From Escherichia phage HMD-6, in sequence record PQ505080.1: a stretch of DNA of 64,000 nucleotides. One strand, 5' to 3'. Of this stretch, positions 20,551 through 24,935 are shown piece after piece. Below the pieces are notes generated by a model that saw only the letters and a list, made by a program, of their open reading frames with translations, searched no databases and was not told where the DNA came from. A program made the position numbers and the translations under genes. Each line of letters begins with the position of its first letter. Position 1 is the first letter of the stretch.

Positions 20551-20838
20551 TCATAGTGTCTCTAAAATTTCATACCCTTCGGGTCGGAAAACAAGCCACT
20601 CAGGTGCTCCATTTGGTCGATACGCTTTATACAGAACAACCTGATCTCGGCACATGCACATGGCTACATAGTTTTCATCAACACCTGCCTCCTGCATTGC
20701 ATCTTCTTCTCCGGCAACAGCCTTGCTTACAACTTCCTTGGTAGGCAGGTGGGCGATCAGCTCGTCACCATCGTTAATTCCAAAATGACTGAGTTCTCCA
20801 TTGGTATCTTTAATCTTGATCTTAACCAAATCTTTCAT
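20551..20838 (-). CDS. small acidic protein, paralog family B (95 aa)
   Basis: ORF track; MK..IK..N-terminus and acidic C-terminus shared with 21167, 21518, 22941. Confidence 0.55.
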   Translation of the reverse strand: MKDLVKIKIKDTNGELSHFGINDGDELIAHLPTKEVVSKAVAGEEDAMQEAGVDENYVAMCMCRDQVVLYKAYRPNGAPEWLVFRPEGYEILETL

Positions 20839-21167
20839 TAGTCTTCCTCCAAGTTCAAAGGTCCTAAGATTTCATATGCCAGATTAGAAGTTACCAGAGG
20901 GTCTTCTGCATCTTTAGTATTATACCATCCGTGAATAACCAGAGTCCCACTTTGCTTCATGTCTAACTGGAACTGTTCTGCCGTTTCCTCATCCATCTCC
21001 AAGATCTCCATAAGGTATTTGATGTTAGGGAGATATGCGGCTGTTACAGTCCCCTCTACCAGGCCTTCAGGCCAACCTACATCCGGATGACAAGTAGGGA
21101 CCAGAGAGGTCAGCTTGATAGTGTATGCTTTTTCTGCACGAGCCTTCAGTAACGGATCAATTTTCAT
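20838..21167 (-). CDS. hypothetical protein (109 aa)
   Basis: ORF track; tight coupling to flanking genes. Confidence 0.55.
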   Translation of the reverse strand: MKIDPLLKARAEKAYTIKLTSLVPTCHPDVGWPEGLVEGTVTAAYLPNIKYLMEILEMDEETAEQFQLDMKQSGTLVIHGWYNTKDAEDPLVTSNLAYEILGPLNLEED

Positions 21168-21517
21168 TATTCTTCCTCCTCTTCGGTGCCTGCTTCCAGT
21201 AGCAAGTTAAGAACATCTTCAGCAGAAGGTTCGTAGAACTCTTGGCCTTCGTTGTCGATGATGCGATAGTCATCACCACGAATAATCAGAGGATCGTCAT
21301 CAAAACCTTCAAGGCCTTTAACAACGACAACACGGTCGATTGCCATCATTGTAAGAACTTTATCGACATCTTCCTCTGCTACACCATACTGCAGCAGAAT
21401 GTCTTTGGTAGGAGGGACAGCATCCACCACAACACCGTTACCAAAACCTTCCGGAAGTTTAGCTAAAATATCTTCCGGAACCACATTCATATCAAAACCT
21501 GTGATCTCTACTTTCAT
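21167..21517 (-). CDS. small acidic protein, paralog family B (116 aa)
   Basis: ORF track. Confidence 0.55.
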   Translation of the reverse strand: MKVEITGFDMNVVPEDILAKLPEGFGNGVVVDAVPPTKDILLQYGVAEEDVDKVLTMMAIDRVVVVKGLEGFDDDPLIIRGDDYRIIDNEGQEFYEPSAEDVLNLLLEAGTEEEEE

Positions 21518-21778
21518 TTACAGAACCTCTTCGTCAACTACTTCATAAAAATGGCCTGGGATTGCAATAGCGTTCTCACCTTCACCTACAAACACTGTCC
21601 CGTCAAGGATCAACATCATAAGAATGTCTGTAATATCCTCTTCCGGAACGTTGCCAAAACCTTTAATCAACTTATAGGTCGGGATATTCGCCTCTAAGAT
21701 GTCGCCATCTTTAGAGCGGAAATCAACACCATCCTGAATCTCTGCCGTTTCAAGGTTTTTCAATTTAATCTTCATCAA
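21518..21778 (-). CDS. small acidic protein, paralog family B (86 aa)
   Basis: ORF track; ends ..YEVVDEEVL. Confidence 0.55.
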   Translation of the reverse strand: MMKIKLKNLETAEIQDGVDFRSKDGDILEANIPTYKLIKGFGNVPEEDITDILMMLILDGTVFVGEGENAIAIPGHFYEVVDEEVL

Positions 21779-21854
21779 TCAGTCTCCTGTCTTGTTAAGA
21801 TGAAGGTATTATTGCACACAGGGTTGGTGTTGTCAACACCTGTGTGGGATAAAA

Positions 21855-22250
21855 TTACTGGAACAGTGCAGATAAATTACCTTCTGGTGGGAACTTATCC
21901 GCCAAGAACGGAGTCAGAACAGTGGCCTTCTGAAGATCTGGAGTCCACTCGTTGTTCAGAACATCCCAGTAGTACGCAATGTTGCTGTGTGGGTGCCGCA
22001 TTACGAACTTTTTCCCTTCGTAGTCAGTTGAAACCTCTACAGAAGAAATAACAACAGAATCTTCAAGAGTTTCTTCATAGAAAGATCCACCCTCGAATTT
22101 CCAACGAGATGCAAGAGCTCCTGCCTTAAACGCTGCAGATAACGGACTGTCGGCAAGAACATACATTTCTTGCACTCTGTCGATACGATCTTTGCTTCTT
22201 ACGTTGTATACAGTATCTGAGCTATACTCAACACGGTATAGACTTACCAT
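21855..22250 (-). CDS. hypothetical protein, paralog family C (131 aa)
   Basis: Shares HP(H/D)S..YW(D/N)...(E/T)WTP motif with 24056-24466. Confidence 0.55.
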   Translation of the reverse strand: MVSLYRVEYSSDTVYNVRSKDRIDRVQEMYVLADSPLSAAFKAGALASRWKFEGGSFYEETLEDSVVISSVEVSTDYEGKKFVMRHPHSNIAYYWDVLNNEWTPDLQKATVLTPFLADKFPPEGNLSALFQ

Positions 22251-22597
22251 TACCGCACCTCCTCAATAACTTCCACATCTGAACCTACCACAAATGCAAA
22301 AGGGCAGGTTTCATGAAAGACATCCGGATCGCCGCCAAGCTTGCTAACTATTTCTCCACCACTAATAAACACAAGCTCACCGATATTCATCAGATTGCTG
22401 AAATAGTATCCATAATGATTAAAGAATGCAGCAGGGTCAGGCAGACTGGTAGCCTCAAGCTCTACATCAGTTGAGGTTACTTTCTTATCATACCCTCTCG
22501 CCTTTTGAGATGCAAGATCTGCAGAATCCTCAGGCGACCGGAGATGCACAGGAATTGTTTCCCCAATAAAGCGTACTTTCATATTCTCACCCAACAA
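22250..22597 (-). CDS. small acidic protein, paralog family A (115 aa)
   Basis: MKV(R/K) start and VGSDVE-type C-terminus as in 24467 and 24711. Confidence 0.55.
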   Translation of the reverse strand: MLGENMKVRFIGETIPVHLRSPEDSADLASQKARGYDKKVTSTDVELEATSLPDPAAFFNHYGYYFSNLMNIGELVFISGGEIVSKLGGDPDVFHETCPFAFVVGSDVEVIEEVR

Positions 22598-23347: not shown

Positions 23348-23665
23348 TCAATCCCAAAAGTCAATCTTTACTTTACCTTTTCCCTTACCTTTCTTTCCAC
23401 CGCATTTAGCCAACTGGCGTGCTGCAACATCCACCATACGGTCAGTTGCCTCGTAAGCATCGCTACCTTTAGCTTTGGCGATAACTTCTTTCCCAGAATT
23501 GTCAAAAATAAAAGCCATAACTTCCTGGTGATCATTTTCAACTTTTACACTCACACGTGCATAGTTGGCAGATGGGTGCAAACGCTCCAGTTTGGACATT
23601 TTGTGGGAAATGAAAGACACCATACCTTCAGTGATCTCTACGTTGCCAGTAATTTCAATCTGCAT
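23348..23665 (-). CDS. hpf: ribosome hibernation promoting factor / RaiA (YfiA) family protein
   Basis: MQIEITGNVEITEG...KLERL...VSVKVE...AKGSDAYEATDRMVDVAARQLAK closely parallels the bacterial HPF signature (MQLNITG..VEITE..KLE..LKVE..AEGQDMYAAID..KLARQL). Confidence 0.7.
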   Translation of the reverse strand: MQIEITGNVEITEGMVSFISHKMSKLERLHPSANYARVSVKVENDHQEVMAFIFDNSGKEVIAKAKGSDAYEATDRMVDVAARQLAKCGGKKGKGKGKVKIDFWD

Positions 23666-23747
23666 AACGTGCTCCTTTTAAAGAAGAGGGAACCAAACCC
23701 TCTTTGGAAATAATGATACTAAAGATCAAATGTTGTGTCAACAGTTT

Positions 23748-24038
23748 TTACAGCTTGTCGTCGATAGTTTTTAAAATATCTACTGCAAGATCTGCCATTT
23801 TACGAACATACTCTGCAAACTCAACAGGATCCTTGATCAATGAGTTCACAGGGTCATACCCTAAAGCGTTTAAAATGGCTACAGCATCCACAACCTTCTC
23901 ATCATTTGCGAAGATCTCACCGTCAAACTTGTAGGTCCATTTTGAGTCAATCTTGGCATGGCAGGATTGGTCCATGCTTATTACACCATCTTTTTTAAAC
24001 GATTCGGTGTTATCAGTATCCAAAACTAAATCCATCAT
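23748..24038 (-). CDS. hypothetical acidic protein (96 aa)
   Basis: ORF track. Confidence 0.5.
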   Translation of the reverse strand: MMDLVLDTDNTESFKKDGVISMDQSCHAKIDSKWTYKFDGEIFANDEKVVDAVAILNALGYDPVNSLIKDPVEFAEYVRKMADLAVDILKTIDDKL

Positions 24039-24055
24039 GTAAGTACCACACTATT

Positions 24056-24466
24056 TCAGCTTATTTTTTCTTCAACAACCCCGTAGCTCGGGGCAGAGTC
24101 AAGAGCTTTCTGGTTTAAAAGTGGTGTAGCAGAATCTGCAAACGGTGTCCAGGTTTTTGTTCTGGCATTCCAGTAATGCTTCACTCTGGAATCAGGATGC
24201 ACTATAACAAAAACTTTTTCACTTGTCAACACATTAATTTCTTCCACACCCTTACTGACAATTTCTCCGTCATAGCCCCCAGTCTGGTACCCTTCGTACC
24301 AAGTTCTTGCATAGGCATAGCCAGCCTGCCAGCATGCAGCCTCTTCAGAGGTGGAGACTACGTAGAAGTCTTTCTCAAATTCCGGGATACGCCCTTGCTT
24401 TACGCTCCAAGCTCCGCGAATTTTCATTGTAACTTTGAACAGTTTATTTTTCACAACAGTCCCCAA
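24056..24466 (-). CDS. hypothetical protein, paralog family C (136 aa)
   Basis: See 21855-22250. Confidence 0.55.
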   Translation of the reverse strand: MGTVVKNKLFKVTMKIRGAWSVKQGRIPEFEKDFYVVSTSEEAACWQAGYAYARTWYEGYQTGGYDGEIVSKGVEEINVLTSEKVFVIVHPDSRVKHYWNARTKTWTPFADSATPLLNQKALDSAPSYGVVEEKIS

Positions 24467-24721
24467 TCACGGCTCTAAAATATCTGCATCTGACCCTACC
24501 CCAAAGGCATAATACGAGTCCTCTCCGAAATAATATTCCGGAGCACCAGCCGCGATCAGGTCTGATCCCAAAATGAACACCACATTGTGGCCTACATAGC
24601 TGTGATTTTGCCGCACAGGATCATCCCACGGCAACCCTTCGAAGTATACAGCAGGTACTACCTTTCCCTTCAGGAATGATTGTCCCAAGTAGACGTTAGA
24701 GTCAAGAATTTTAACCTTCAT
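24467..24721 (-). CDS. small acidic protein, paralog family A (84 aa)
   Basis: MKVKILDSNVYLGQ...DLIAAGA. Confidence 0.55.
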   Translation of the reverse strand: MKVKILDSNVYLGQSFLKGKVVPAVYFEGLPWDDPVRQNHSYVGHNVVFILGSDLIAAGAPEYYFGEDSYYAFGVGSDADILEP

Positions 24722-24935
24722 AATCGTCCTCCACTATCTCCACATCCTCCCCTAGGGCAAAGTTGTAGGCCCACTGACTGTCAAAGCATTCCTGAGACGC
24801 GCCAGCGGCAATAAGATCTGCCCCTTTTATTTTTAAAAGATCAGGATAATCTTCGTTAGGGATAGCGGTAAACACTTTTCCAACTAAAGGCTCTTGACCA
24901 ATATAGAAGTTTGAATCTAAAACTTTCACTTTCAT
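24711..24935 (-). CDS. small acidic protein, paralog family A (74 aa)
   Basis: MKVKVLDSNFYIGQ...DLIAAGA. Confidence 0.55.
   Translation of the reverse strand: MKVKVLDSNFYIGQEPLVGKVFTAIPNEDYPDLLKIKGADLIAAGASQECFDSQWAYNFALGEDVEIVEDDYEG

Follow-up and report, generated by a model that had tools for sequence, protein, structure and literature searches.

Between positions 20551 and 24935 of a 64,000-nucleotide stretch of Escherichia phage HMD-6 (sequence record PQ505080.1; the whole stretch is hereafter called the window) lies a series of small minus-strand genes in which three paralogous families, A, B and C, can be recognized. The phage is a Vequintavirus: the 5.5-kb stretch around these genes shares 98% identity with Escherichia phage FV3 and 90% with rV5, and nearly all of the ~120 phage records that match it are Vequintaviruses. 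These phages are widely used in therapy and biocontrol against pathogenic E. coli, and most of their early genes are annotated as "hypothetical". We describe here how twelve such genes collapse into three families, two of which have a predicted fold, and how one group of three adjacent genes, called cassette 2, is linked to a strong and previously unremarked host-specific phenotype in published transposon data. An anonymous block is in this way reduced to a short list of testable host-range and counter-defence candidates.

The genes and their arrangement

The family genes sit inside a long run of small minus-strand genes, annotated almost wholly as "hypothetical protein" in FV3, rV5 and the BASEL phages, and the gene order of this run is identical in every record inspected, these phages among them. 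The open reading frames (ORFs) listed in an initial annotation of the sequence were all found on the minus strand at the places given, except that the real starts of two of them are at 22582 and 21775, both being ATG codons with a ribosome-binding site. The genes and promoters are listed below with the lengths of the proteins in amino acids (aa) and, for some, the isoelectric point (pI); bas54 numbers designate the orthologs in phage Bas54, whose genes were mapped to the window by blastp (92-98% identity).

24711..24935 (-), A1, family A, 74 aa, pI 4.05, ortholog of bas54_0159, predicted SH3-like five-stranded barrel
24467..24721 (-), A2, family A, 84 aa, ortholog of bas54_0158, overlapping A1 by 11 nt
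28228..28461 (-), A3, family A, 77 aa, pI 5.4, ortholog of bas54_0166, 3.3 kb upstream of A1
22587..22850 (-), distant member of family A, 87 aa, first gene of cassette 2, ortholog of bas54_0152
22250..22582 (-), distant member of family A, 110 aa from the ATG at 22582, second gene of cassette 2, ortholog of bas54_0151
22941..23210 (-), family B, 89 aa, pI 4.3, apart from the tandem B array, ortholog of bas54_0153
21518..21775 (-), family B, 85 aa, ortholog of bas54_0149, predicted SH3-like barrel with a two-helix insert
21167..21517 (-), family B, 116 aa, net charge -22, acidic tail, ortholog of bas54_0148
20838..21167 (-), family B, 109 aa, ortholog of bas54_0147, absent from the initial annotation
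20551..20838 (-), family B, 95 aa, ortholog of bas54_0146
24056..24466 (-), C1, family C, 123-136 aa depending on the start chosen, pI 7.8, ortholog of bas54_0157
21855..22250 (-), C2, family C, 131 aa, third gene of cassette 2, ortholog of bas54_0150
21808..21836 (-), sigma-70-like promoter between cassette 2 and the tandem B array
23713..23741 (-), sigma-70-like promoter downstream of cassette 1 (A1, A2, C1) and upstream of a RaiA/HPF-like gene

Both promoters match the consensus at 11 of 12 positions. The first (TTGACA-17-AATAAT) coincides with a promoter annotated in rV5 as P150, and the gene at 21518-21775 leads the four-gene tandem B array behind it; the second (TTGACA-17-TATCAT) is annotated in rV5 as P144. 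Family genes follow one another at spacings of -11 to +17 nt, with ribosome-binding sites lying within the ends of the upstream genes, and 1 nt is shared by the start of C2 and the stop of the gene before it. The region probably forms part of an early accessory block of Vequintaviruses transcribed by the host RNA polymerase.

Three paralogous families

When 32 neighbouring genes were compared all against all by profile-profile alignment (hhalign, 496 pairs), the top 11 pairs all fell inside the three families, while pairs outside them scored at most 8%, save for one match over an 11-column motif between A1 and the product of 23748-24038.

Family A has five members, as the initial annotation proposed. 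In a blastp comparison against a database of 110 minus-strand ORFs, A1 found A2 with E=3e-14 and A3 was linked to A1 with E=1e-5. The PHROGs family phrog_5009 matches these three over its full profile (6e-38, 4e-32 and 9e-36 for A1, A2 and A3, respectively), the product of 22587-22850 weakly (1.9e-4) and that of 22250-22597 not at all. A profile hidden Markov model (HMM) built from 26 public-data sequences and run on all 579 ORFs of the window picked up just two ORFs beyond the core three, 22250-22597 at E=4.6e-6 and 22587-22850 at E=1.1e-4; the best of the rest stood at E=1.5. The hhalign links that support the five-member family range from 75 to 96%, with A2-22250 at 96% and 22587 against A3 and A2 at 86-88%; A1-A2 stands at 99%. 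A multiple alignment displays collinear motifs in all five proteins: MKVK, (V/I)GK, VVF-x-G-x-D-L-I-x-x-G-A, Y-x-F and G-x-D-x-E-(I/V)-V-E. Relative to the family, A2 carries a loop insertion between strands 2 and 3, and the protein of 22250-22582 a large insertion. Outside the genus, homologs were found in lambdoid E. coli prophages and in phage MagusPhagus, as one copy of 75 aa (contigs L002, L010 and L011, 8001-8228 in each; L012, 371-598). This copy lies among small genes between the Q antiterminator and holin genes, a late-transcribed "moron"-type position, in contrast to the early position in Vequintavirus. No B or C relative was found in the neighbourhood searched around the lambdoid prophage homolog.

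Family B was harder to confirm. With the window sequences and their near-identical orthologs, its support was marginal (blastp E 0.02-0.5; hhalign 5-7% for some pairs). Its confirmation came from adding orthologs from two diverged relatives, namely the metagenomic contigs L007-L009 (35-80% protein identity, same gene order) and the still more distant L017 and L018. With these included, hhalign linked 22941 to 21518 at 93.7% over 77 columns and 21518 to 21167 at 96.8%; 21167 and 20838 are linked at 91-93% over 69 columns. The least secure member, 20551, scored 70% against 21518, 55% against 21167 and 50% against 22941, and blastp linked it to the 22941-like protein of L017 with E=2e-4. A profile of three B genes ranked 22941 and 20551 first among 29 other genes, and a four-member profile matched 22941-23210 at 88%. 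All members are thus joined by profile-profile links, and the family foreseen by the initial annotation is real, although the list of its members was one short, 20838-21167 having been overlooked. A sixth candidate, 19791-20042 (-), was rejected because it has no sequence support; its 83-aa product is beta-rich by eye and may be SH3-like, and it has no sequence link to A or B.

Family C consists, as the initial annotation had it, of two members of ~130 aa. C1 and C2 find each other by blastp (E=6e-7 in the same 110-ORF database) and by hhalign (99%), and both match phrog_7379 over its full length (2e-73 and 3e-65). No Pfam, PDB or PADLOC relative was found, and an exhaustive search of 1.84 billion representatives returned five real clusters only, all from these phages. 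One apparent outsider, P0097, was rejected: this 1900-aa protein has five repeats, and the HMMER hit reflects a YYWTV-type motif repeated in Ig-like repeats. The rV5 record describes ORF142 (C1) as similar to Listeria phage A118, and the exhaustive search contained no such relative.

Part of this paralogy was already implicit in PHROGs, where A1, A2 and A3 share phrog_5009 and C1 and C2 share phrog_7379, both of "unknown function". The same database splits 22587-22850, 22250-22597 and each of the B genes into single-lineage families (phrog_13920, 13661, 11868, 12359, 12155, 12457 and 12794), giving no function, fold or link among them. No meaningful Pfam, PADLOC or PDB-sequence profile match was obtained for any of the three families. 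Full-text searches found no paper that describes them, and the rV5 genome paper is silent on paralogs and duplications.

Could the resemblances result from composition or chance, so that the families are not real? The weak scores of family B in the window-only comparison, and the acidic ends that are partly explained by overlap with ribosome-binding sites (see below), would be in keeping with this idea. Nevertheless, it can be taken as already refuted. The 11 best pairs of 496 all lie within families, the profile links are significant, the alignments are collinear over full length, a B profile puts the two members left out of it first, and PHROGs groups A1/A2/A3 and C1/C2 independently. The similarity therefore goes beyond composition.

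Acidic ends and translational coupling

The proteins were described in the initial annotation as small and acidic. This holds for most members (pI 4.05-4.6, net charge -6 to -22, with an EEEEE tail in the product of 21167-21517), but not for C1 and A3, and neighbouring genes unrelated to the families encode equally acidic proteins. Acidic C-termini had moreover been proposed as a signature of family B. Their codons (GAG, GAA), however, often read as the GGAGG-like Shine-Dalgarno sequence of the next gene. Such overlaps occur at the following places:

24722-24745 (-), acidic end overlapping a Shine-Dalgarno sequence
22251-22275 (-), the same
21168-21190 (-), the same
20839-20860 (-), the same
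21518-21540 (-), the same

The protein ends concerned are VEIVEDD, VIEEVR, EEEEE, LEED and VVDEEVL, and the next gene starts between 11 nt inside the upstream gene and 0 nt past its stop. The shared acidic end is thus partly a constraint of translational coupling, and because it coincides with the Shine-Dalgarno sequence of the next coupled gene, it is weak evidence of homology when taken alone. More generally, this should caution one that acidic C-terminal "signatures" in tight phage operons can be by-products of overlapping ribosome-binding sites.

Predicted folds

AlphaFold models were made for two proteins, A1 and the B protein of 21518-21775. A1 is predicted with a pLDDT (predicted local distance difference test) of 92.6 to form five strands and a short helix in an SH3-like barrel. 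The model of the B protein (pLDDT 89) repeats these five strands and adds a pair of helices between the second and the third. Compared without direct superposition, the two models have their five strands in the same order and match several SH3 chains in common, the nearest fold class for both being the SH3/KOW/PsaE small beta-barrel. No Pfam family, SH3, SH3-like or KOW included, matches any A or B protein at E values up to 1, and sequence comparison of A with B gave no homology (best hhalign 6-22%, confined to the N-terminal strands). A and B have a predicted fold class and a gene neighbourhood in common, and we keep them as separate families. A search of BFVD with the B model found an 86-aa protein of a Vibrio phage (TM score 0.74), a 95-aa protein of Vequintavirus ECP32 (TM 0.60-0.66; taken as the ortholog of 20551 by length only) and an 83-aa protein of Shigella phage CM1, also a Vequintavirus (TM 0.52, probability 0.99; its link to 19791-20042 is unverified).

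The models bear on the suggestion, made in the initial annotation, that the families are DNA mimics, i.e. acidic proteins that would pass for the DNA phosphate backbone and so sequester DNA-binding defence or repair proteins, for instance restriction enzymes, RecBCD or H-NS. The acidity of most members, the EEEEE tail and a size similar to that of some known DNA mimics speak for this possibility. Yet the modelled A and B proteins appear as compact, generic SH3-like barrels of 74-85 aa, and no match in sequence or fold to a known DNA mimic was found. In addition, C1 and A3 are not acidic whereas unrelated neighbours are, overlap with the Shine-Dalgarno sequence of the following gene accounts for part of the terminal acidity, and the phage encodes DNA methyltransferases of its own nearby. 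A DNA-mimic function is therefore highly improbable.

Age of the paralogs and the repeated A-A-C order

The paralogs are old and stable. They are 25-40% identical in amino acids, and their orthologs among Vequintaviruses are 85-100% identical; the ratio of nonsynonymous to synonymous substitution rates (dN/dS) is 0.02-0.26 for every family gene in comparisons with rV5 and Pr121LW; and A1 and the 21518 gene were each found by tblastn in 118 of the ~120 matching records. The term "expanding families" used in the initial annotation does not suit such ancient genes, which have no similarity left in their DNA, are fixed in ~118 Vequintavirus records and evolve under purifying selection.

The order A-A-C does occur twice in the block, as had been pointed out. 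Two such runs in a block of ~40 genes are very unlikely to have arisen by chance (~1e-4 by our own rough permutation estimate). The only DNA similarity between the two copies is a 23-nt match, which encodes the C-terminal motif shared by A2 and 22250. As to a segmental duplication, the pairwise scores point both ways. The hhalign score of A2 with 22250 (52) exceeds that of A1 with 22250 (32), as expected of positional counterparts. On the other hand, A1 and A2 score 98 with each other, far above either cross-cassette pair, 22587 is equidistant from A1, A2 and A3, and the clades give a mixed picture:

Clade of the window (Vequintavirus): A1, A2 and C1 at locus 1; cassette 2 present
Clade of L007: A1 and A2 at locus 1, C1 missing; cassette 2 present
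Clade of L017: a C1-like gene after two unrelated genes; cassette 2 absent

The segmental duplication claimed at the outset is thus only weakly supported. An en-bloc duplication followed by homogenisation of A1 and A2 through recombination is plausible on these comparisons, and such homogenisation is possible because natural A1/A2 hybrids exist: P0003 and P0009, from public metagenomes, each join the N-terminus of A1 to the C-terminus of A2. Further variants of the same origin include P0025 (the N-terminus of a prophage-type A protein with the C-terminus of A1), P0037 (A2 fused to the C-terminus of the 23748-24038 protein) and P0094 (C1 fused to the same). The last two fusions delete C1 wholly or partly. 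The tandem paralogs are therefore substrates for ongoing recombination and deletion.

Cassette 2, by contrast, clearly comes and goes as a unit, since it is whole in two clades and wholly absent from the third. The L017 clade retains A3 and four B genes, and A3 is the only A member found in all three related clades (73% identity in L007, 68% in L017). The two genes upstream of the single C gene of L017 were considered as diverged A genes and rejected.

Some differences of content between these relatives may be recorded here. In L007, an unrelated 106-aa ORF occupies the position of C1, and an extra gene matching Pfam PF27050 (Phage_P22_Y8K6) lies at 11389-11685, between C2 and the first tandem B gene. 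The homologous early block of L017 and L018 has an insertion at 9532-10644, an IS605 OrfB/TnpB (Cas12f-like) gene that lies immediately downstream of the ortholog of 19457-19762, a transcriptional regulator according to the annotation of FV3 and rV5.

A host-specific requirement for cassette 2

A recent preprint describes HIDEN-SEQ, in which Bas54 (phage MaxBurger, MZ501093) was subjected to saturated transposon mutagenesis (bioRxiv 10.1101/2025.11.20.689424). bas54_0146-0159 are direct orthologs of genes of the window, for which this work provides the only experimental data. In E. coli K-12, all genes of the three families are classified as "non-essential" or "intermediate"; bas54_0151-0153 fall in the latter class and the C2 ortholog bas54_0150 in the former, with 25 of its 25 TA sites hit (bioRxiv 10.1101/2025.11.20.689424). 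The situation is different in CFE311, a uropathogenic clinical isolate, for which the comparison with K-12 gave the following log2 fold changes:

bas54_0152 (22587-22850): -7.16, zero reads in CFE311
bas54_0151 (22250-22582): -6.17, zero reads in CFE311
bas54_0150 (C2): -6.77, zero reads in CFE311
bas54_0157 (C1): -2.14, a mild depletion, adjusted p reported as 0.00000
bas54_0153 (22941-23210): -2.78, not significant

For bas54_0150-0152, i.e. the whole of cassette 2, the adjusted p of the depletion is likewise reported as 0.00000, and the flanking genes bas54_0149 and 0154 are unaffected in CFE311 (bioRxiv 10.1101/2025.11.20.689424). Thus, to the homology, predicted fold and conservation described above, the published data add that the genes are dispensable in K-12 and that some of them are conditionally essential in one clinical isolate. 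The depletion of 0150-0152 and of 0157 appears in a supplementary table only, and the paper discusses neither it nor the paralogy. Its authors validate only bas54_0063 and bas54_0140, against DS-28, a predicted defence system of CFE311, and conclude that bas54_0140 and a MoxR ATPase are required to overcome this system (bioRxiv 10.1101/2025.11.20.689424). The ortholog of bas54_0140 in the window (93% identity) is 18770-19069 (-), 1.5 kb downstream of the genes described here; therefore, the block holds at least one experimentally supported counter-defence gene.

Possible functions of the families

Short operons behind sigma-70-like promoters, translational coupling, SH3-like scaffolds, dispensability in K-12 and the requirement for one module in a natural isolate together suggest that these small proteins are protein-binding accessory factors. 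We propose, with moderate confidence, that this is their nature and that cassette 2 counters a host determinant, most probably an anti-phage defence. Each paralog would dock onto a different host protein and neutralise or redirect it. The cassette 22587-22850/22250-22582/21855-22250 would act as a unit against a determinant carried by some natural E. coli strains, and the most probable target is an anti-phage defence system. Inferred here are the mode of action (binding), the nature of the target (a defence system) and any role for the members that have no phenotype.

The published data on cassette 2, and weakly those on C1, would fit the pattern expected of counter-defence genes, which a permissive laboratory host makes dispensable and a host with the cognate defence makes necessary. 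The anti-defence role put forward in the initial annotation for all three families is accordingly plausible for cassette 2, but most members have no phenotype in CFE311: A1, A2, A3 and the four tandem B genes are unaffected there. Several other points weigh against our proposal. A strain-specific requirement need not involve immunity, and strong purifying selection with genus-wide fixation fits housekeeping takeover genes more than arms-race genes. The HIDEN-SEQ authors are silent on 0150-0152, and only DS-28 and Gao_Tmn were cloned from CFE311 (bioRxiv 10.1101/2025.11.20.689424). There is only one informative strain, because the sheet "resampling_K-12_vs_CFE303" of Extended Data Table 8 bears the CFE311 command line and numbers identical to those of the CFE311 sheet. 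Finally, a transposon in 0152 or 0151 might exert a polar effect on 0150, in which case possibly only C2 matters.

The main rival of counter-defence is host takeover. On this account, the SH3/KOW-like barrels would bind core host machinery, for instance RNA polymerase, the ribosome, partners of Rho or NusG, or nucleoid proteins, and thereby tune early expression, the CFE311 phenotype reflecting a physiological difference between strains. The early operon adjoins a RaiA/HPF-like gene and a transcriptional regulator, the models match KOW-like folds, the genes are fixed and strongly constrained throughout the genus, and bas54_0151-0153 are "intermediate" even in K-12. We nevertheless hold takeover to be unlikely, if a serious contender, as none of the genes is closed to insertions in K-12, the searches brought up neither KOW nor any other Pfam motif, and counter-defence genes in that study (bas54_0063, 0140) usually show just this contrast of total loss in one clinical strain and no loss in K-12. 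Polarity leads to an unlikely alternative, in which only C2, and more weakly C1, acts against the CFE311 determinant, the A and B proteins are neighbours unrelated in function and the A-gene phenotype is a polar artefact. In agreement with it, both C genes are depleted, 0150 is immediately preceded by 0152 and 0151, with which it is translationally coupled, and the L017 clade has a C gene with no adjacent A genes. The A genes upstream of C1 cut both ways. That they show nothing in CFE311 is what one expects if only C proteins matter; at the same time, the depletion of C1 is not mimicked by insertions in 0158 and 0159, so that polar effects are not a general property of the locus. The HIDEN-SEQ authors, too, argue that polarity is not widespread (bioRxiv 10.1101/2025.11.20.689424), and the gain or loss of cassette 2 as a whole also speaks against this alternative.

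A bolder form of the counter-defence proposal, which we regard as unlikely, is that cassette 2 constitutes a new multi-protein counter-defence system directed at an immune system of CFE311, the other nine paralogs being a library of pre-adapted binders. Two diverged SH3-like members of family A and a C-family protein would together neutralise the immune system of this uropathogenic strain, and each of the nine others might be specific for a different host defence, forming a vertically inherited, genus-wide repertoire built on one or two small scaffolds. Should cassette 2 indeed target a defence of CFE311, it would provide a new inhibitor and possibly point to a new or poorly known immune system.

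Neighbouring genes and other features of the window

Other features were noted in the window:

23348-23665 (-): ribosome hibernation factor of the RaiA/HPF type (Pfam PF02482, E=1.8e-12), between the two cassettes, with its own sigma-70-like promoter
~15400-17880: ORF-poor region of ~2.4 kb separating divergently transcribed gene blocks
60477-61289 (+): seven tRNA genes (Arg, Tyr, Ser, Thr, Met, Pro and one that is oddly long, with a four-base anticodon)
62809-63087 (+): group I intron (Rfam RF00028, 81 bits), ~1.5 kb past the tRNA cluster

The RaiA/HPF-type gene of Bas54 is non-essential in K-12 and in CFE311, and the Bas54 equivalent of the ORF-poor region, between bas54_0134 and 0135, tolerates no transposon insertions (bioRxiv 10.1101/2025.11.20.689424). 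No Rfam family or tRNA was found in that region of the window. Among the database records, 18 (MG0656xx) are named Campylobacter phage, with C. jejuni as host, and are 90-93% identical here to E. coli Vequintaviruses; their naming looks doubtful.

Comparison with known systems

The DNA-mimic anti-restriction proteins Ocr, ArdA and Arn are likewise small, acidic phage proteins made early. They form elongated, DNA-shaped dimers, whereas the A and B proteins are predicted to be globular barrels.

Another parallel is Nip of the temperate Bacillus phage phi3T, a counter-defence protein that forms a complex with the defence protein SpbK and with YonE (PMC11984713). Nip is much larger (279 aa, with two SH3-like domains and an HU-like dimerisation domain), acts on the NADase SpbK and has no sequence relationship to the proteins described here. 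The likeness is that of a phage protein with SH3-like domains, and Nip thereby sets a precedent for counter-defence by SH3-like proteins (PMC11984713).

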